64,000 bases of DNA from a virus. Made by a program: the position numbers and the translations under genes. Under the pieces are notes generated by a model, which saw only the letters and a program-made list of their open reading frames with translations, made no database searches and had not been told where the DNA came from. Positions 5,564-53,496 of this stretch are shown in pieces; positions within the stretch are counted from its first letter, which is position 1; each line of letters begins with the position of its first letter. The stretch lies in the IMG/VR virus record IMGVR_UViG_3300018083_000001, one strand, 5' to 3'.

Positions 5564-5663
5564 CGAAAAACTTCTCCATCAATATGTGGATCAATACTAG
5601 GACCGCCCCAGAAAGAACGACCACTGAGGCTGTTATGAATATGAACCACATCCATTCTGGCAT
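5553..5663 (-). CDS. possible 36-aa single-pass membrane peptide
   Basis: My own translation gives MPEWMWFIFITASVVVLSGAVLVLIHILMEKFFGGQ. It fills the gap between the morphogenesis gene and the gp10-family gene. It is below the track size cutoff and the RBS is weak. Confidence 0.3.
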   Translation of the reverse strand: MPEWMWFIFITASVVVLSGAVLVLIHILMEKFFGGQ

Positions 5664-5667
5664 TGCA

Positions 5668-6690
5668 TCATTTGACTCCAGCAAGGAAGTCAACCACAGG
5701 TTCGCGCCAACATCGACAATTGATTACCTCGTCTGCCGGTCCATTTGGATCACCGGGATACATTAGCGCAACTCCATTGCCGGTTATAAATGGTTCATCT
5801 TGTTTAACGACTTGGCCATCCATAACCCGATGAGAGTCACGGGTACGATCATCGTGCGTCGCATGCCACATATATTCAACATTTTCTTTTTCAATAGCGC
5901 CCTGCGAGATACCTTGTCGCATCGCCTCATCCTGCGATTGATGCAAGGCGGCCATTGATTCGGTCCGTGCTATCGCTTCTGCGCGAAACTTCAATGCGCG
6001 GTTTTTGTAAGACGTAACCATCTTCTCCCGCAGCTCAGCAGGCACTGGCGCACCTTCCTCTGCCGCACGTCTCACTGCTCCATCAAACCTTTTGTCTCTG
6101 AGCGTACGGTTGAGCGCTGCCCCTGGCGCATCTGAGGCAAGTTCGTCCCGGTAATTGCGAACCCATTCCGCTTGCGACGAAGTGAGTCCCAATGTGCCGC
6201 CCTCACGGCGTCCAGACGCGCCAATACGTCCAACGAGATCGAGTGACGCAGTGCGCGGGTTGAGTCCTTTAGCCATCCCATCTGTTAGATGCTCCCGGAT
6301 CATATTGCGCTGATCTTCAAGTATCTCTGTGATTGACTTAGATGAATGTGCGCTAAGCCATTGCTCTGCGCTTTGATTGCGAACGGAAAATTGAATGACG
6401 GTCCTGAAGCCTTGTGGGTTCCTCGTGACAGGAATAAGTCTAGCTGTGGCGTTGCCTCCTGCTTCAAAGGCATTACCAATAGTCGCATCCCATTTGCGAA
6501 ATTGCACGGGATCAAGACCAACAGCACTAACAGCACCAGCAACATCGCCACTCTCAAGCATCCTAGCAATCTGCTGGATGTCAGCTCCCTTTCGCATATT
6601 CTGGACGGCATCATTGAATGCCTTTTGTAATTCGACATCCCAATGATCGATCAACCTATCAAAGAGACGATTTGTTCTAGCCTTCGCCAT
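5668..6690 (-). CDS. head morphogenesis / minor capsid protein (SPP1 gp7 / Mu F family)
   Basis: 340 aa. The C-terminal WHATHDDRTRDSHRVMDGQ ... EVINCRCW signature matches the family. Confidence 0.85.
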   Translation of the reverse strand: MAKARTNRLFDRLIDHWDVELQKAFNDAVQNMRKGADIQQIARMLESGDVAGAVSAVGLDPVQFRKWDATIGNAFEAGGNATARLIPVTRNPQGFRTVIQFSVRNQSAEQWLSAHSSKSITEILEDQRNMIREHLTDGMAKGLNPRTASLDLVGRIGASGRREGGTLGLTSSQAEWVRNYRDELASDAPGAALNRTLRDKRFDGAVRRAAEEGAPVPAELREKMVTSYKNRALKFRAEAIARTESMAALHQSQDEAMRQGISQGAIEKENVEYMWHATHDDRTRDSHRVMDGQVVKQDEPFITGNGVALMYPGDPNGPADEVINCRCWREPVVDFLAGVK

Positions 6691-36957: not shown

Positions 36958-37511
36958 TCGCTGTGATATTCGACACTGAAACGACAGGGCTTATCCAAAA
37001 TCATAGCATGTCCCTCAATCAACAACCTGAGGTCATAGAGTTCTATGCGGCGATGGTTAATATGCATACTGGTGAGATACTCCGCGAATTTGAAACATTG
37101 ATCAAGCCAAGCCGGAAGCTTTCTGATGTTCCAGCCTTTGGTGATAAGAAAACCATAACCCAAATGACCGGCATTACCAACGAGATGCTCGAGGACCAAC
37201 CATCATTCAAGGACGTAGCCGATCAAGTAAGGGACATACTCCTTGCCTCTCCCTGTGTGATAGCCCACAATGTCTCGTTCGACTGCGAGATGATCGACAT
37301 TGAATATGAACGCCTCAAGCAATCCTTGATGTGGCGGGATGTTATCTGTACGGTCGAGGCTTCCGCCTATCTAAACGGCGGAAGGCTTTCCCTAACAAAG
37401 CTGCACGAGTATCTTTTCGGAACGCAATTCAAGGACGCGCATCGAGCCAAGCCAGATTGTCAGGCTCTGATACGCTGTACGTTGGAGCTATTCAAGAGAG
37501 GAGTGATATGA
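36954..37511 (+). CDS. dnaQ: DnaQ-like 3'-5' exonuclease (Pol III epsilon family)
   Basis: 185 aa. Exo I is IFDTETTGL, Exo II is AHNVSFDCEMI and Exo III is HRAKPDCQAL. Confidence 0.85.
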   Translation: MIAVIFDTETTGLIQNHSMSLNQQPEVIEFYAAMVNMHTGEILREFETLIKPSRKLSDVPAFGDKKTITQMTGITNEMLEDQPSFKDVADQVRDILLASPCVIAHNVSFDCEMIDIEYERLKQSLMWRDVICTVEASAYLNGGRLSLTKLHEYLFGTQFKDAHRAKPDCQALIRCTLELFKRGVI

Positions 37512-40342
37512 GCGCAAGAATAAGAACAGGTTACTCCTTTAAGACTGCGTGGGGGCATTTGGAGGAGGTGTCTGAACGATTGAATGAAATTCAACTATCC
37601 AGACAACCCATCACAGACAAAGATTCAACGTTTGGCTTCACATCGTGGAATAAGTTAGTCAAGGCTCCGCTCTTTGGCGTTGAGCTTAGTGTTGCTGCCG
37701 CCATCGGGCAAAAGCTTCCAGCAATCGACAATATGACGTTCCTCGCCAAGGACAACTTAAAGTCTCTCAATCAACTCGTACACTTAGCGACTAGCATCGC
37801 CGCCAAAACCCCGCATCTCCGTTACGAGGATGTTAATAACGCAGAAGGTGTTATCAAGATCGCTGGTGAACGGGCGCAACTTGAACTGCTCGATCCATCT
37901 GACAAAGATTTGTATATGGCACTTAGTCCCGCATTGCCCAAAGGCTTATACACGCAAGCAGTCGAGCGCAAATTCAAATTCATTGCCTGTTCGGAGAATT
38001 ATTATCCATTAGCCAAGGACAAGGAGATATATCGCGTTGCGCTTGGTAAGCGTAGCAATACACAAAGCTATCCAATGTACATCCTATCGGATGATGAATG
38101 GGATAAGTCTATTAGGATTGCTTCCGATTTACATAAATCGAAGGCAATCACAAACCGCAAAAAGGTTTTTGCGAAATGTAACGCCAAGTTGTTACCTGCC
38201 GAGCTACTTACTCCGAGGAAAAACCGGACATTGCGCGAGTTATGCCTTGATGGTGCTGAAAGACTAGGTATCAATCTAACCGATCCCATTTATGGTGATC
38301 GTTTAGATAGAGAGCTAGACTTGATCGAAGAGAAAAAGTTTGAGGATTATTTCTTCATCATTGCTGATCTGGTATGTTACGCAAAGACCAAGATGATCGT
38401 TGGTCCTGCGCGAGGTAGTTCGTGCGGATCATTGGTATGTTACCTCCTCAACATCACCGCGGTGGATCCTATTCCATATGGATTGATCTTTGAAAGATTC
38501 ATCGATACAACGCGTGCCGATCTACCGGATATTGATATTGACTTCTCTGATGCGCGGCGCTTTGAAGCATTCAAGTATGCCGAGGAGAAATACGGCAAGG
38601 ACCATGTGGCACGTCTTGGAACTGTAACTCTTTTTAAGCCGACATCCGCCTTGAACCAAGCCGGTGCGTCGCTCCGTGTACCGAAATGGATGGTGACGAA
38701 GGTATCAGATACCATTGTCGAAAGATCGCTGGGAGATGCGCGGGCTTGGCAAACCATCGAGGACACCTTGGAGTCCACGGACGCTGGCCGGCTTATGATC
38801 AAGGATTTTCCCAGCATGAAGCTCGCTCAGCAAATGGAGGGGCATCCGAACTCCTCCTCGCAGCATGCGGCCGGATTGTTACTTACGCAAAGCCCAATAC
38901 TCGATCACGTCGCCGTTCACGGGCAGACCAATGTCGCGATGTGTGATAAATACGATGCTGAATCGCTCAATATGTTGAAGATAGATGCTCTGGGCCTCAC
39001 ACAACTATCTATTTTCGAAAGGACACTTGAGCTGATAGGAGAGAAATCAGTCAATGGGTATCTTGAGAAGCTACCACTGGATGACCCGCTCGCATTCAAA
39101 ATCCTCAATGACTTTAAGTTCGCCGGTATCTTCCAGTTCAATGGTATCGCCCTACAAAATCTCGTCAAGCAGGTCCGAGACATTAATCATCTTGATGATA
39201 TCATCGCGATCACGGCATTGGCACGTCCAGGTCCATTGGCTACCGGAGGAGCAAACCTCTGGTGTAAGCGGCGCACAGGGCGCGAGCCAATTCTTTACAA
39301 TCATCCCATAGTCGAGCCATATCTAAAAGAGACACTTGGCATTGTGATTTATCAAGAGCAAGTCTTAACGATGGGCCGGGAGATAGGCGACCTAAGTTGG
39401 GCACAAGTCACAGCATTGCGGAAGGCAATGAGTAAGTCGTTGGGCGTTGAATATTTTAACCAGTTCGGTGATCCTTGGAAAATCGGCGCGATGAAACGCG
39501 GTATGTCGCAAGGTGTCGCCGACAAGATGTGGGATGATCTTTGCTCGATGGGATCGTGGGCGTTTAACAAGGCGCACGCTGTTGCCTATGGATTGGTGTC
39601 TTATTATTGCTGCTATTTGAAAGCGCATTATCCGCTGGAATTTGCGGCGGCCACGCTGGACGCAGAGAGCGAGCCAGACCGCCAGATTCAATTGTTGCGC
39701 GAGATGAAAGGCGAAGGGATCGACTATGTTGATGTCGATCCGGACCACAGCGGCAAGCTTTGGTCTATCGCTAACAATAAGCTAATCGGACCATTGACCT
39801 CAATCAAGGGCATCGGACCGGCGTTCGTCAACGAGATAATCAACGCCCGCAAGAAAGGCATACCGCTAAGACCAACAATCGCCAATCGTCTTAAGGAAGC
39901 CAAGACAGATATCAAGACACTCTATCCCGTCAAGGCATTTATCGAGCGCAATTATCCCGATTTAGAAAGTATCAACATCGTCAGCAAGGTGCATAATCTC
40001 ATTGACATACAATGCGGTAAATTCGGCAGGTTCGAGCCGATCCTTGCGATCGCCATAGCAGTCAGGATAAATCCGCGCGATGAAAATGAGGAAGTCAATA
40101 TCAGGCGTCGTGGTGGTGAAGTCGTAACAGGACCGACCAAGTATCTAAATATGTTTTTCCGCGACGACACTGATGAAATATTCGTTAAGGTGGACCGCAA
40201 AGACTTTGAACAATACGCAGTGCCGATAATCGAGCGTGGCCGTCCAGGCAAAGCCATCTACGCAATTAAGGGAACGGTCCCGCCAAACTTCAGGATGATA
40301 TCAGTAGATCGTATCAAATATCTGGGGGACATAGACCAATGA
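37508..40342 (+). CDS. dnaE: DNA polymerase III alpha subunit (DnaE-type) with degenerate PHP domain
   Basis: 944 aa from ATG 37508 (ATGA overlap). Motifs: GPARGSSCGSLVCYLLNIT, PDIDIDF, HAAGLLL and FNKAHAVAYG. The N-terminus RIRTGYSF replaces the H.xVHSxYS metal ligands. Confidence 0.9.
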   Translation: MSARIRTGYSFKTAWGHLEEVSERLNEIQLSRQPITDKDSTFGFTSWNKLVKAPLFGVELSVAAAIGQKLPAIDNMTFLAKDNLKSLNQLVHLATSIAAKTPHLRYEDVNNAEGVIKIAGERAQLELLDPSDKDLYMALSPALPKGLYTQAVERKFKFIACSENYYPLAKDKEIYRVALGKRSNTQSYPMYILSDDEWDKSIRIASDLHKSKAITNRKKVFAKCNAKLLPAELLTPRKNRTLRELCLDGAERLGINLTDPIYGDRLDRELDLIEEKKFEDYFFIIADLVCYAKTKMIVGPARGSSCGSLVCYLLNITAVDPIPYGLIFERFIDTTRADLPDIDIDFSDARRFEAFKYAEEKYGKDHVARLGTVTLFKPTSALNQAGASLRVPKWMVTKVSDTIVERSLGDARAWQTIEDTLESTDAGRLMIKDFPSMKLAQQMEGHPNSSSQHAAGLLLTQSPILDHVAVHGQTNVAMCDKYDAESLNMLKIDALGLTQLSIFERTLELIGEKSVNGYLEKLPLDDPLAFKILNDFKFAGIFQFNGIALQNLVKQVRDINHLDDIIAITALARPGPLATGGANLWCKRRTGREPILYNHPIVEPYLKETLGIVIYQEQVLTMGREIGDLSWAQVTALRKAMSKSLGVEYFNQFGDPWKIGAMKRGMSQGVADKMWDDLCSMGSWAFNKAHAVAYGLVSYYCCYLKAHYPLEFAAATLDAESEPDRQIQLLREMKGEGIDYVDVDPDHSGKLWSIANNKLIGPLTSIKGIGPAFVNEIINARKKGIPLRPTIANRLKEAKTDIKTLYPVKAFIERNYPDLESINIVSKVHNLIDIQCGKFGRFEPILAIAIAVRINPRDENEEVNIRRRGGEVVTGPTKYLNMFFRDDTDEIFVKVDRKDFEQYAVPIIERGRPGKAIYAIKGTVPPNFRMISVDRIKYLGDIDQ

Positions 40343-40566: not shown

Positions 40567-41471
40567 TGAAAATCGCCCTTGTTGTTATCTCTAATCGTCC
40601 AGAGAAAATGAAGACATGCGTCGCTGCGACGTTCAGGCACGCGATGGTTTCATCGCACAAATATCAATTATGTCTCTCGTACCAAGATCCATACACGGTT
40701 AATGATCTTGCTGAAATAGATCGCTCACTTCCAAAAGGAGTAGAATTCAACTTTGCGTATCGCAAGCCGCCAGAAGGGCCACTGTTCAATTTTGTCGAGG
40801 CGCGGCTCCATTCCTTTTGGCTCGCGGAACGTGCCGAGGCTGACTATCTGATATGGGTTGATGATGACTTCCGCTTCACGAACGGCAGCACGACACAACT
40901 TGGAGTATCCACTGGCCGGCGTTATTCTGATGCTGTCTATTATTTGAAGAAATATCCCGAATGTGGATTGGTCCAGATGACGGGCTTCCTTGGCGGAGCA
41001 AATTCCGGACGCTACATCCAGCCATTTTTCAATGGCTTCTATGAAACGGCCTGTGGCCTCGTCATGCGCGGCAAGGACCGCGCCTATGGACCACTTATTG
41101 ATCCGCGTCTTAACGTAATTGGCGGTGGATCTGATCCGGCGACTTTCGTTACCTCTCTCATCAACGGCTTTTATGTCGCCAAGACATTCAATACTCCGCT
41201 CCGAAAGGATCCAAGCAAAAAGATATTCGTTCCAAGCGGACGGTCCGGCAAACACCTCACAGATAATCAAAATTACAGCCAAGATTATCTTACCACTGTC
41301 GGCGTCCACGCGCAGATCACGAAGCATTTCGGCGAATACCGCCACGGCAAGCGTATCTCAAGGCCACTGTACCAGACTTATCGGCTCGCCGCCAAGAGGC
41401 GCGGCCACGAGATTAAATCCGCGATGTGGATGGACCGTGAAGACCAGGAGCGGCTGGCGGAGGAAGTTTAA
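40566..41471 (+). CDS. GT-A-fold glycosyltransferase-like protein
   Basis: 301 aa. The N-terminal beta-strand MKIALVVISNR and the YLIWVDDDFRF (DxD) motif fit the fold. The fold call is tentative. Confidence 0.45.
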   Translation: MKIALVVISNRPEKMKTCVAATFRHAMVSSHKYQLCLSYQDPYTVNDLAEIDRSLPKGVEFNFAYRKPPEGPLFNFVEARLHSFWLAERAEADYLIWVDDDFRFTNGSTTQLGVSTGRRYSDAVYYLKKYPECGLVQMTGFLGGANSGRYIQPFFNGFYETACGLVMRGKDRAYGPLIDPRLNVIGGGSDPATFVTSLINGFYVAKTFNTPLRKDPSKKIFVPSGRSGKHLTDNQNYSQDYLTTVGVHAQITKHFGEYRHGKRISRPLYQTYRLAAKRRGHEIKSAMWMDREDQERLAEEV

Positions 41472-41863
41472 TGGATGGCGGATTACGCCCAATGTTCCGG
41501 AAGCAACTGCGCGACTATTTTTGGGTCGTGATCGAGACGCCGATGAGCGGTGGCGGTGTCCCGGATCACTACTGGTGTAGCTCCGGGATAAGCGGCTGGA
41601 ACGAATACAAAGCCACCTCCGGGATGGTCGTCCGGTTTCGTCCGGAGCAAATCGGCTGGCACTCCGCCTACGCTCGCCACGGAGGAAGGAGCTTCATAAT
41701 TATCCGCCGCCAGAACCGGGATGCCGATGAGATTTATATTTACAAAGGCAGCGACGCAGATCCAAATATGATGAAGAAAACTCCTTGGGTTTATGCCGCC
41801 GATGGTGGTCCGAAAATGTGGAATTGGGAGGTCATTTCCTCCGTCCTACGCACGGCGAAGTAA
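41471..41863 (+). CDS. VRR-NUC / PD-(D/E)xK nuclease-like protein
   Basis: 130 aa. GGGVPDHYW ... GWNEYK ... PEQIGWH matches the VRR-NUC pattern (G.PD ... E.K ... Q..W). Confidence 0.5.
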   Translation: MDGGLRPMFRKQLRDYFWVVIETPMSGGGVPDHYWCSSGISGWNEYKATSGMVVRFRPEQIGWHSAYARHGGRSFIIIRRQNRDADEIYIYKGSDADPNMMKKTPWVYAADGGPKMWNWEVISSVLRTAK

Positions 41864-41983
41864 TAGAACGGCATATCGGATTTCAAACTTAAAACGGTGC
41901 CTGTGAAATCAGCCCTTACTGGGTGTTTTTCACAATTCCGGGATGACACCTTCTTACTAGCACCTAAAAAAGCGTTATTTTAT

Positions 41984-42005
41984 AAGGGCTTACGAAAGCC
42001 CTTTT
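41984..42005 (+). terminator. intrinsic terminator candidate at the end of the replication operon
   Basis: AAGGGCTT-ACGA-AAGCCCTT followed by TT(CAT). The stem is 8 bp and the T-run is only 4 nt. Confidence 0.45.
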
Positions 42006-42059
42006 CATCTGTCTCGAAAAAGGGCTATTTTACCGGACGTTCTACCGTCGTGAGACGCT

Positions 42060-42437
42060 AGATAAAAAGGTTACTCGGGACTAACCCGAGCGCAGGGAGG
42101 AAAGCCCTCCCGGAAAGCGGACTCAAAAGCGCCTGAGCGGAGTGAAGCCGAGAACCTGGATCGGTAGCGCTGCGAGGGTTAGTAAATCGAGCGGGATGCC
42201 GCGAGAGAGAAGAAGCGAAAAAGTTTTCGAGTGCGCATCGACGCCACCCGAATGTCCACCGCGACCGCAGTACGGACGAAAACTTTTTCGAAGCCCCCAC
42301 CCAATCGCGGTGGGCTGTTGGAAATCCCGAATGCCCTCCGTGGCCGTAGTAGGGATGTTGAGGATTGTTCCTAGTGCGTCGCACCTACGGGATGCGGCGC
42401 ATCGGGGAGCAATACCGCTCCGATGAGGAGACTGAAC
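42060..42437 (+). ncRNA. candidate structured non-coding RNA / regulatory leader (class unknown)
   Basis: About 380 nt of GC-rich sequence with no credible ORF. It has several hairpins: 42074-42090, 42095-42111, 42296-42314, and a 14-bp inverted pair at 42216-42229 / 42277-42290. The strand is assumed from the flanking genes. Confidence 0.3.
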
Positions 42438-42674
42438 GTGATAACGATTAAAGAAGCGACCACCCTTCTGAACCTTGCGAAAGCCTACGCTGCGAACGAA
42501 AAGATTGGCGACCAGGCTCAGAGGCTCTATGTAAATAATTTCGATAAAGCCGAGCGACTGGACGACCAGTACGATAAGACGGAGGAGAAGCTGGACCGCT
42601 CCCTGCGGGTGGCTCTTCTGAAACTGATCGATGCGAACTGGGCGCTGGCCGGAACGCCGGTGAAGATTAAGTAA
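42438..42674 (+). CDS. hypothetical coiled-coil protein
   Basis: 78 aa from GTG 42438, with GAGGAG 7 nt upstream. The track start ATG 42423 has no RBS. Confidence 0.55.
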   Translation: MITIKEATTLLNLAKAYAANEKIGDQAQRLYVNNFDKAERLDDQYDKTEEKLDRSLRVALLKLIDANWALAGTPVKIK

Positions 42675-42775
42675 CTGACTACCTCTGGGGGACGCTGGAA
42701 TGACCCAGCGTCCCTTTCCTTCCACCGAAAGACTCCAAGCCCATCGAGGCACGGAGCAAATAAGGAACTACTAAA

Positions 42776-43960
42776 ATGATCTCTTCTTCTTTGAAGGCTA
42801 ACCTCGCCGCTCTTGAGTCCGTTCTCCCGATTTTGATCGAGAAGGAGAAGGCTGGATTAGTTAAGCCCAATAGCGTGAAGGCCGCTCGCGACTTTATCTA
42901 TATGGGAAAGAATGATCGAACATTTTCCGAAAAGCAGGAACTGTTCGTTGGGACGCTCCTCGCTAGGGCGAACCGGAAGCACATTAAGGCTAACATCCAC
43001 GTTAATACCGGCACGAACGTAAACGTGGAGGAGATCGTCGATAAGGTTATGGAGAAGGTCGGCAAGGAGAAGATTGATCCTGAGCTGATCGTTGGCGCGG
43101 TCTTGAAAAAGATCGACGGAAAGTTTTCCGATAGCGTTGTTGCCTCCGTGGTAAAGACGCTCGATGAGCGGCTGCCTCGGAAAGTTGAGATCGTCGTAAA
43201 GAATGCTGAGACTGGAAAGGCGATTAAGGTTGTCGGTGCGCGCCATAAGAATTTTGAGAGGCTTCTGAAGATTGCCTCTCTGCGCGGCGTGGACGGCCAG
43301 CGTCTCGGCATCTTCCTCTCCGGTGAAGCTTCCTCCGGTAAAACGACCGGAGCGAAGCAGGTCGCTGAGGCGCTTGGATTGAAGTGGTACTTTAACGGGG
43401 CCATTTCTCTCCCACACGAGATGCTCGGCTTCATCGATGGCGCTGGTACCTATCACCGGACGCCTTTCCGCGACGCCTACGAATTTGGCGGCGTGTATAC
43501 GTTCGATGAAGTAGATCGCTCTGATCCGAACGCGCTGCTCGCCGTTAACCCTCACTTGGCGAATGGCGTCGCGACCTTCCCGGATAAGCAAGTGAAGCGG
43601 CACAAGGATTGTATCATTATCTGTACCGCTAACACTTGGGGCTTGGGAATGGACGCGAACTATTCCGGTGCGACGAAACTGGACGCGGCGTTCCTGTCGC
43701 GCTTCCCGGTTAAGATCTCCTGGGACATCGACCTGGACCTGGAGTTCGCTATCGTAAATAATAAAGAATGGCTGGCCCGTGTCCGTCGCGCTAGGGCGAA
43801 TGCCCGAGCCGTTGGATTGAAGGTGATGATCGACGTGCGTACCTCGCTCGCCGGTTCTACCTTGATCGATGAGGGTGGCTTCTCCTCCGATGAAGCGGCG
43901 GAGTTGACCTACCTCGCGAACCTGAAGCCCGAACAACGCAAACAGATTGAGTTGGTGTAA
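42776..43960 (+). CDS. AAA+ ATPase (AAA_5 / MoxR-CobS-like)
   Basis: 394 aa. Walker A is GEASSGKTT, Walker B is VYTFDEVD, sensor-1 is CTANTWG and the Arg finger is FLSRF. RBS is AAGGAACTACTAAAATG. Confidence 0.85.
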   Translation: MISSSLKANLAALESVLPILIEKEKAGLVKPNSVKAARDFIYMGKNDRTFSEKQELFVGTLLARANRKHIKANIHVNTGTNVNVEEIVDKVMEKVGKEKIDPELIVGAVLKKIDGKFSDSVVASVVKTLDERLPRKVEIVVKNAETGKAIKVVGARHKNFERLLKIASLRGVDGQRLGIFLSGEASSGKTTGAKQVAEALGLKWYFNGAISLPHEMLGFIDGAGTYHRTPFRDAYEFGGVYTFDEVDRSDPNALLAVNPHLANGVATFPDKQVKRHKDCIIICTANTWGLGMDANYSGATKLDAAFLSRFPVKISWDIDLDLEFAIVNNKEWLARVRRARANARAVGLKVMIDVRTSLAGSTLIDEGGFSSDEAAELTYLANLKPEQRKQIELV

Positions 43961-52984: not shown

Positions 52985-53240
52985 TCACACGGAGGAGTTT
53001 CGCCGCACGATGATTGAGACGGGACAGCCGTTGCGCGATCTGGAACTGGTCCTTGAGAGAAAAGAGCCATGTTGGGACTCAGAGGAGCTCAAGCGCGAGT
53101 TCACCGTGCTTGGTTTTTTGGCGCCCTTTGTCGCTGTCGTTCGTAAGAGCGATGGCGTCAAGGGATGCTTGGAGTTCACGCACAGTCCAAGGTACTACTT
53201 CAACTTCATGCCGATTGATTTGAGATCGGTCAATTTGTAA
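52974..53240 (+). CDS. hypothetical protein
   Basis: 88 aa; last gene before a strong terminator. Confidence 0.5.
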   Translation: MVVDHTEEFRRTMIETGQPLRDLELVLERKEPCWDSEELKREFTVLGFLAPFVAVVRKSDGVKGCLEFTHSPRYYFNFMPIDLRSVNL

Positions 53241-53256
53241 GCGTTGCGTTTGCGTT

Positions 53257-53322
53257 GGATCGGAGGAGCCATTTGGGATCGGTCACGCATCCCCAAATTG
53301 GTTTTCTCCGGTCCCTTTTTTT
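53257..53322 (+). terminator. intrinsic terminator (long imperfect hairpin plus T7)
   Basis: GGATCGGAG ... CCATTTGGGAT / ATCCCCAAATTGG ... CTCCGGTCC, followed by C and TTTTTTT at 53316-53322. Confidence 0.6.
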
Positions 53323-53496
53323 GACCTTGAGGCGGTGTTTAGATACCGCCTACCGGGAGGCGCGGAAAAGCCCGTAAAACGGCCCATCGGATTAGCCACG
53401 TTTAAACAGCCCTAGGACACGATAAACCGGACCGAGGCAGGTAGGGATAGCCCCCAGTCCCGGAAGGCTTATAGGCGCGTGTTATTTCGTGGAATT

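Follow-up and report, generated by a model that had tools for sequence, protein, structure and literature searches.

The 574-bp gap at positions 41864-42437 of a 64,000-nucleotide stretch of phage DNA (IMG/VR record IMGVR_UViG_3300018083_000001, hereafter the window) specifies, on the plus strand, a heavily folded RNA that ends in a long, conserved hairpin (42362-42416) just before the next gene. The structure of this RNA, its conservation and the placement of the hairpin are well supported. The gap follows orf130, the last gene of a DnaE replication module, whose stop codon ends at 41863, and runs to the best start codon of the next open reading frame (ORF), a GTG at 42438. The reading preferred here, to which we give about an even chance, is that of a cis-acting structured leader whose terminal hairpin acts as a processing or translation gate, with a terminator and a promoter before it. 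The leader appears to represent an RNA family that is absent from existing catalogues and restricted to a small clade of soil phages that encode DnaE.

The conserved 3' hairpin

A preliminary description of this DNA, made from the letters alone, had found no credible ORF in the gap, and comparison with relatives bears this out. The gap is the longest ORF-free stretch of the window, and none of the ORFs inside it is conserved at the amino-acid level among relatives. When the gap was compared with 18 related gaps by six-frame tblastn, only the last ~60 nt, which hold the 3' hairpin, gave matches. These occurred in all six frames, which indicates conservation of nucleotides and not of a protein. 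A conserved small ORF was thus ruled out by the same search.

Ten distinct related DnaE-type loci were recovered (L103, L104, L136-L139 and L143-L146). In all ten, DnaE is followed by a homologue of orf130, and a gap of 560-860 bp devoid of conserved ORFs separates this homologue from a small ORF. Direct nucleotide searches of the gap against these relatives with blastn and nhmmer returned almost nothing beyond the 3' end, so homology was established by synteny and short shared blocks. The near-identical genomes L094-L102, which show a single single-nucleotide polymorphism (SNP) in the gap, could not be used for covariation.

The hairpin is 55 nt long, with ~23 bp and a predicted stability of -35.8 kcal/mol (z -6.66). 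All 11 loci, counting the window, end their gap with the same succession of GGAUUGUUCCY, stem, loop, return stem and GGGAGCAAUACC. The basal helix of 11 bp is invariant (GGAUUGUUCCY against GGGAGCAAU(A)CC) and includes an invariant U·G pair. Above it lie an internal loop and then an upper stem that covaries. The apical loop reads GUCAGAG in 10 of the 11 other copies and GUCGGAG in that of L145, while the window has the non-consensus CCUACGGGA.

Covariation had been proposed as a check in the preliminary description, and the 3' hairpin passes it in two alignments. In a plain MAFFT alignment, 87.4% of cells were paired, compared with 42-53% when partners were slid, and the covariation score was 0.328 against 0.143 in shuffles, a value reached by none of 500 shuffles. 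A model-fitted alignment of 12 copies with 21 modelled pairs, which leans towards structure by construction, gave 94.8% of cells paired against the same 42-53% and a covariation of 0.49 against 0.16, again reached by 0 of 500 shuffles. Changes on both sides of a pair were found at every one of the 10 upper-stem pairs (42 cells) and at none of the 11 basal pairs.

Several features place the structure in a plus-strand RNA. The basal U·G pair is kept in 12 of 12 copies, and the next helix has a G·U pair in 8 of 12. On the opposite strand these pairs would be A·C mismatches, which argues for a plus-strand RNA. A covariance model of the hairpin, R1, gave plus-strand scores of 61-87 bits and minus-strand scores of 14-20 bits. 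In the window it found one copy (66.3 bits, E 1.4e-15). R1 had no match in 22 loci of a sister group that encodes PolA instead of DnaE, which indicates that only the DnaE-type clade has this 3' hairpin.

The hairpin keeps close company with translation starts. In every copy, ~15-55 nt separate its 3' end from a start codon (22 nt in the window). Each genome has a single hairpin of this kind, except that L139 holds an extra copy (5638-5712, 42.9 bits) between two genes of the downstream operon. There, the upstream stop codon falls within the 5' strand of the hairpin, and a Shine-Dalgarno (SD) sequence and an AUG come afterwards. The element is also rare. A strict hairpin pattern was found in only two IMG/VR contigs, both known already, and in 0 of 185,579 GTDB genomes.

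The leader and its 5' side

All hairpins, dyads and repeats of the preliminary description were recovered at the positions given for them. The division of the gap into an AT-rich and a GC-rich part was also described correctly, with 43% GC at 41864-42063 and 58.6% at 42064-42437 in a window of ~51%. The AT-rich part contains the terminator-like hairpin that had been noted at 41984-42005 (AAGGGCUU-ACGA-AAGCCCUU, plus strand, 8 bp, -10.9 kcal/mol, z -2.95). Its tail is UU and then CAUCU if the A-U pairs form, and UUUUCAUC if they do not. As the U-tract is taken up by the A-U pairs, a scan for the terminator consensus did not call this hairpin, which is nevertheless a plausible terminator for the replication operon. 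The heptamer AAGGGCT or its inversion AGCCCTT occurs four times here, as claimed, at 41910, 41984, 41997 and 42020.

Elements that resemble a promoter overlap this segment. A plus-strand box, AAAAAGSGYTATTTTA, is present at 41967-41982 and 42017-42032 and nowhere else in the 64 kb. An inverted repeat, AGCCCTTTT/AAAAGGGCT (41997-42026), precedes the second copy of the box, and the -10-like hexamer TATTTT (42026-42031) comes after this A/U inverted repeat. The combination is shared: a U-rich/A-rich inverted repeat stands before a -10-like TAT(A/T)NT in the window and in 10 of 10 relatives. Taking the 5' end suggested by the -10-like box, the leader would extend over ~400 nt (42038-42437, plus strand).

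This leader has a predicted minimum free energy (MFE) of -160 to -168 kcal/mol. The segment 42040-42425 folds with a plus-strand z of -5.14, and none of 100 shuffles was as stable; the minus-strand z is -2.44. Among the leaders of eight relatives, plus-strand z ranges from -2.1 to -5.2 and is at least as negative as that of the minus strand in all eight. These values bear on the view that the gap is an ordinary spacer between a terminator and a promoter, in which the GC hairpins are either neutral palindromes or operators at the DNA level and the folding of the RNA is functionless. A promoter-like box and palindromes do exist, and the 5' 300 nt diverge so fast that nhmmer recovers almost nothing, as expected of a spacer. 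However, plus-strand z is below -2 in 9 of 9 leaders tested, a 560-860-bp gap is retained in every relative despite the compactness of phage genomes, and the 3' hairpin shows strong covariation and strand bias. In addition, the spacing of stem and loop in the 5' hairpin varies from 3 to 14 nt, which suits dimeric DNA-binding proteins poorly. A plain spacer is therefore decidedly improbable.

Several smaller modules can be recognised within the leader. A 5'-proximal hairpin at 42041-42062 (UCUA-C-CGUC-GUGA-GACG-C-UAGA) has -8.6 kcal/mol in isolation, and this segment has other pairing partners in the full-length MFE of the window. The sole gap polymorphism among the nine near-identical metagenomic copies, T>A at 42043 in L099 and L101, falls in this predicted hairpin. 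In most relatives, the first 50 nt after the -10-like box also contain a hairpin, of unrelated sequence. Next come the two small GC hairpins that the preliminary description had listed, at 42074-42090 (CUCGGG-ACUAA-CCCGAG) and 42095-42111 (GGGAGG-AAAGC-CCUCCC), both of which are in the MFE structure (P 0.81 and 1.00). The second had been assigned to a family of palindrome arrays, an assignment that does not hold, as the GGGAGG/CCTCCC pattern occurs only twice in the window. The two adjacent GC hairpins and a GGAAAGC that follows them align, within 42054-42123, to the model of the hya RNA motif (RF02992). Membership was rejected, as the score of 20.5 bits compares with a gathering threshold of 56.8, the E value of 0.71 is at chance level, and relatives do not reproduce the match.

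Further downstream, the A/U dyads CGAAAAAGUUUUCG (42216-42229) and CGAAAACUUUUUCG (42277-42290) are exact 14-nt reverse complements, as had been noticed, and they are the sole two matches in the 64 kb (0.21 expected). In the predicted fold, they form a 13-bp stem (P 0.94) that encloses ~47 nt. This long-range stem, the other half of the earlier claim, is not conserved in relatives, which have at the dyad position only a single self-complementary GAAAA(N0-2)UUUUC palindrome. In L137 and L144, a single self-complementary GAAAAUUUUC/G palindrome lies ~160-220 nt before the start codon, like in the window, while L145 and the PolA-type locus L019 have an A/U palindrome elsewhere in the leader. Palindromes of the A4-5/T4-5 type are 12-fold denser inside leaders than outside. 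As the palindrome recurs in relatives and the long-range stem does not, the palindrome is taken as the recurring unit.

Another two-copy element is a 30-nt direct repeat at 42247-42276 and 42326-42355 (CCCGAAUG..CCG(C/U)AGUA.GGA, 80% identical). Its core, GTGGCCGTAGTAGG, is identical in the PolA-type locus L005, and the two copies in the window have no stable fold on their own. The motifs AGUAG, GUAGC and CAGUA are enriched ~2.3-fold over 19 leaders in a strand-specific manner. TIGR arrays, type III antitoxin repeats and CRISPR-like arrays were considered and rejected, as there are two copies only and no tandem array; no partner gene for such a system was noted among the flanking genes examined.

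Between the dyads and the 3' hairpin lies a hairpin domain at 42295-42354 (helices P 0.95-0.98) that includes the box GGGCUGUUGGAAAU at 42312-42325. The corresponding box in relatives, GCUGUUUGAMAU, is their best conserved 5' block and stands after a hairpin with an A-rich loop. Relatives share one order of blocks: the inverted repeat and -10-like element, a hairpin, the A-rich-loop hairpin with GCUGUUUGAMAU, ACCGC..AGUA and the 3' hairpin. The leader of the window is a rearranged version of this plan. In the predicted fold of the window, a helix ACGUUC/GAACGU closes the leader from its 5' end to the start codon; as a conserved feature it was rejected, as it is missing in most relatives.

Transcription-primed origins, such as ColE1 RNA II, T4 oriF and oriG and the T7 primary origin, likewise combine a promoter with a long structured or AT-rich untranslated stretch near replication genes. 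An origin was also among the candidates of the preliminary description. The gap would be suited to such a role, possibly transcription-primed, by its position directly after the DnaE module, by a 42-43% GC segment with inverted repeats that could serve for unwinding next to structured DNA, by the promoter-like box and by the A/T palindromes enriched in leaders. Yet the hallmarks of an origin are missing. The gap has no iterons or tandem repeats, its direct repeats being two-copy only and of the RNA-module type, and no DnaA box with up to one mismatch. The cumulative GC-skew minimum lies at ~32 kb, at a divergent gene boundary, and there is no switch at 42 kb. The conserved element is ORF-proximal and coupled to the SD, and its compensatory pairing, its U·G and G·U pairs and its strand preference of 45-70 bits are those of an RNA and not of duplex DNA. 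An origin here is highly improbable, and this part of the earlier description is not upheld.

Shine-Dalgarno pairing and the proposed gate

The SD sequence of the first downstream ORF, GAGGAG (42425-42430), stands before the GTG at 42438 and after an anti-SD-like GCUCC at 42417-42421, all on the plus strand. This GCUCC, just 3' of the hairpin, has two alternative partners: GGAGC in the 3' strand of the basal helix, or the GGAG of the SD. In the MFE of the window, a CUCC/GGAG hairpin covers the SD (P 0.99). The earlier suggestion of a hairpin that sequesters the region before the first start codon is thus borne out in two parts, the long hairpin just upstream and the small one over the SD. In L104, UUCC/GGAA takes the place of CUCC/GGAG.

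In silico removal of the 5' half of the long hairpin raised the probability that the SD is unpaired from 0.33 to 0.76 in the window. The same removal raised it from 0.20 to 0.60 in L103, from 0.47 to 0.82 in L104, from 0.20 to 0.76 in L137 and from 0.20 to 0.80 in L146. The SD was clearly freed in these 5 of the 12 copies, and slightly in L138 (0.27 to 0.36).

These observations suggest how the gap could work as an intergenic control region read on the plus strand. The terminator-like hairpin at 41984-42005 would end the DnaE replication operon, and the A/U inverted repeat with TATTTT would start a new transcript, probably near 42038, that opens with the heavily folded ~400-nt leader. With the terminal hairpin intact, its 3' strand GGGGAGC would be locked in the basal helix, GCUCC would pair with the GGAG of the SD, and the first ORF would be closed to translation. 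Once the hairpin is opened, GGAGC would capture GCUCC in a small 5' hairpin and the SD would be freed. The likeliest trigger would be a cut by an RNase III-type, double-strand-specific ribonuclease, of the sort known from processing sites of lambda and T7. Such a cut would also free the upstream ~330 nt as a separate, hairpin-ended RNA, for which any role of its own is conjectural.

RNase III sites are known in lambda, T7 and T3, and cleavage by this enzyme unmasks an occluded ribosome-binding site (RBS) in adhE and lambda cIII (PMC5371410). The RNase III hairpins of the lambda N leader, cIII, the T7/T3 early intercistronic regions and Escherichia coli adhE are likewise long and irregular with an internal loop, and they likewise lie between cistrons or just upstream of an RBS in a phage polycistronic RNA. 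The present hairpin is an irregular helix of at least 20 bp (21 modelled pairs) close to an RBS, the extra copy in L139 is intercistronic, and the hairpin is predicted to mask the neighbouring SD indirectly. However, there is no sequence relationship to the known sites, and cleavage here is a prediction. The basal helix and apical loop are also invariant in sequence, which is not required of RNase III substrates, and 300-700 nt of further structured RNA precede the hairpin.

A number of points weigh against a cis-acting gate. The SD-release calculation fails in 6 of 12 copies (L136, both copies in L139, L143, L144 and L145), and L143 has no GCUCC. The small ORF after the gap differs from locus to locus, so that relatives share no homologous gene as the target of regulation. 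Pairing alone does not account for the invariance of the basal helix on both strands, and the apical loop of the window deviates from the family consensus. At the 5' side, a sigma-70 consensus scan of 41700-42800 found no promoter and no recognisable -35. Pairwise RNAalifold of the relatives did as well or better on the minus strand and did not tell the strands apart, so the strand assignment rests on z-scores, G·U pairs and the covariance model. Finally, the 5' 300 nt of the window have no close but differing relative (L094-L102 are identical bar the one SNP), and the detailed fold of that part is thus a thermodynamic prediction only.

An alternative is a riboswitch-like or protein-responsive sensor, in which a ligand, a phage or host protein or temperature chooses between the long hairpin and GGAGC:GCUCC pairing without cleavage. 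As in the anti-SD platforms of riboswitches and other leaders, the conserved segments GGAGC, GCUCC and GGAG offer two pairings around the SD that exclude each other. The invariance of basal helix and GUCAGAG loop goes beyond the needs of pairing, and in our own reading this loop is complementary to a conserved 5' block, (G/C)UUUGA(C/A), also given as YUUUGAM, in 9 of 11 leaders. Against this, no riboswitch or other known aptamer class in Rfam matches, and the closed state is so stable (-35.8 kcal/mol for the long hairpin) that a ligand-driven equilibrium is unlikely. The switch could not be computed in half of the copies, the 5' 300 nt are poorly conserved in sequence, and the window does not have the consensus loop. 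A sensor of this kind is improbable.

A different proposal puts the function in the RNA itself. The region would be a large trans-acting non-coding RNA of ~330-700 nt, for example a sponge or scaffold for a protein recognising the repeated AGUAG/CAGUA. Its end would be processed or stabilised by the 3' hairpin, which would have no other task, and the small ORF would be incidental. This would fit with a conserved RNA before a non-conserved first ORF, with the terminator that closes leader and small ORF in the window, L143 and L144, with the 2.3-fold strand-specific enrichment of AGUAG, GUAGC and CAGUA and with the 30-nt duplicated module. PolA-type relatives also have one or two covarying, operator-like hairpins with an AGUA tetraloop and a bulged A. 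On the other hand, no terminator separates the RNA from the ORF, so release would need cleavage, the repeat modules of the window fold unstably on their own, the AGUAG motifs have no consistent structural context, and the putative partner protein has no candidate. This proposal is considered unlikely.

A broader version would join the 400-780-nt RNAs of the DnaE clade to the RNAs that lie upstream of the CobS-like AAA+ gene in the PolA group, which are built differently but share motifs with them. Together, they would form a new class of large trans-acting phage RNA, cut at the hairpin and more than a 5' untranslated region. Such RNAs might act as decoys or scaffolds for an RNA-binding protein, from host or phage, that recognises the repeated AGUA-loop modules. 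This broader reading is rather unlikely. The cis-acting leader with a terminal gate remains the preferred reading.

Genomic setting, relatives and known RNAs

The window belongs to a phage genome of ~69.5 kb, as near-identical contigs measure 69,410-69,521 bp. On the plus strand 5' of the gap, the replication module comprises ThyX, a PNK-type phosphatase, a DnaQ-like exonuclease, DnaE (37331-40342), two further ORFs and orf130 (41471-41863). DnaE is only ~37% identical to any GenBank phage DnaE and the region has no DNA match among GenBank phages; orf130 has no match among these phages either. The clade is uncultivated. The orf130 protein, the syntenic anchor that always precedes the gap, has only 15 clusters of homologues among 5.8 billion proteins. 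Its sole library match is phrog_2165 (E 1.5e-10), annotated as 'DNA helicase'. The protein and its homologues share the invariant residues GGGxPDH ... GWNEYK ... RPEQIGWH ... GGRSF, a signature that can be read as that of a PD-(D/E)xK or VRR-NUC-like nuclease.

On the other side of the gap, the first downstream ORF (ORF78, 42438-42674, plus strand) encodes 78 aa from the GTG, or 83 aa from an ATG at 42423. It was assigned to no family and is not homologous to the first ORF of L144. Directly after it comes a strong terminator-like hairpin (42687-42716, plus strand, -23.2 kcal/mol, z -5.15), with an 11-12-bp GC stem (GGGGGACGCUGG/CCAGCGUCCC) followed by UUUCCUUCC. L003 keeps this hairpin, with a U·G pair in place of a U-A. 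The CobS/MoxR-like AAA+ ATPase gene follows at 42776-43960 (plus strand), and then a gene for a DUF7192 protein. The gap had been described as separating the replication operon from the AAA+ module. It does lie between them, but the 78-aa ORF and the hairpin at 42687-42716 intervene before the AAA+ gene, which this hairpin sets apart from the unit of leader and ORF78. In L143 and L144, too, a canonical terminator stands behind the first ORF, which is not homologous. Promoter, leader, small ORF and terminator thus give the impression of a short unit that was placed between the replication module and the AAA+ module.

The second-largest ORF-free gap of the window (53071-53488, 418 bp, 54% GC) may be a further untranslated region with RNA structure. 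Its plus-strand RNA has a z of -3.73, and a strong hairpin within it is followed by a U7 terminator.

The PolA-type sister group is much the larger of the two. Its AAA+ proteins are 57-65% identical to that of the window (an AAA+ search gave 537 matches at E<1e-30), and a gap of 400-900 bp lies between the polymerase and the small-ORF/AAA+ genes. Several of these gaps (L001 3700-3730, L007 3395-3420, L015, L019, L020 and L021) start with good sigma-70-like promoters, for example TTGCTT-N17-TAGATT. Their spacers contain a conserved CTACC(N)GGTAG-type palindrome that may be an operator. A hairpin module of ~35 nt was also observed in PolA-type loci (L001 4030-4110, L015/L016 3040-3110, L020 3490-3560, L064, L067, L073 and L075). 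It consists of a variable outer stem, an internal loop and AUC-CGC-AGUA-GCG-A-GAU, often in two tandem copies 34-46 nt apart. Covariation is seen in the outer stem and in the inner one, and the copies have a common fold.

Searches with short strings were less productive. For the 16-mer AGGATTGTTCCYAGTG, all 31 matches in IMG/VR were chance, and the recurrent ones lay inside a T7-like primase-helicase gene. About half of the IMG/VR matches of the 15-mer ATCCGCAGTAGCGAG were chance, and the genuine ones were PolA-type leaders. A full-text literature search with the invariant strings returned only unrelated primers.

Other features were seen in individual DnaE-type loci. In L136 (3430-3520) and L139 (3412-3640), dense short GC-rich repeats and palindromes (CCCTAGCGCC; CCCGGGGAG / CTCCCCGG) directly follow the orf130 homologue and lengthen the gap; in L139 the array led the gene caller to a 271-aa ORF. 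The DnaE of L138 (1-1860) contains an intein (PF14890 Intein_splicing match). In L103 (3564-3980) and L144 (458-916), a gene for a GcrA-like protein (PF07750) lies just before orf130, a hint of alphaproteobacterial hosts.

Comparison with known RNAs was made with the 4227 covariance models of Rfam 15, at gathering thresholds and in permissive runs. The Rfam search proposed in the preliminary description gave no match at gathering thresholds in the window or in 15 related loci. The permissive runs gave only chance-level matches in 41700-42600 (E up to 10) and nothing in the leaders of nine DnaE-type relatives (E up to 5). Like GOLLD and ROOL (see PMC12286853), the RNA is several hundred nt long, strongly structured and carried by phages. 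Unlike them, it is continuous with an mRNA and not a stand-alone gene, and it is far rarer (two IMG/VR contigs, no GTDB genome). The GOLLD and ROOL covariance models do not match at Rfam thresholds, and tRNA neighbours are missing, as the window has no tRNA or tmRNA genes.

In summary, structured phage leaders with a hairpin for processing or translational gating are familiar as a kind, and the present family is undescribed, rare and unusually long. The preliminary suggestion of a non-coding RNA or regulatory hub agrees with a region that is syntenic, structured on the plus strand and covarying, with a terminator-like hairpin and a -10-like box before it. That phage genomes are compact and nevertheless obligatorily retain 560-860 bp of non-coding DNA at this position signals function. 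The hairpin provides a new, testable RNA motif in which the base is invariant, the top covaries and the loop GUCAGAG is conserved, and its covariance-model seed can be used to annotate such phages. It also offers a concrete model of how an uncultivated clade of soil phages could gate a unit placed behind its replication genes. If the upstream RNA is released and stable, it would add to the very short list of large phage non-coding RNAs.

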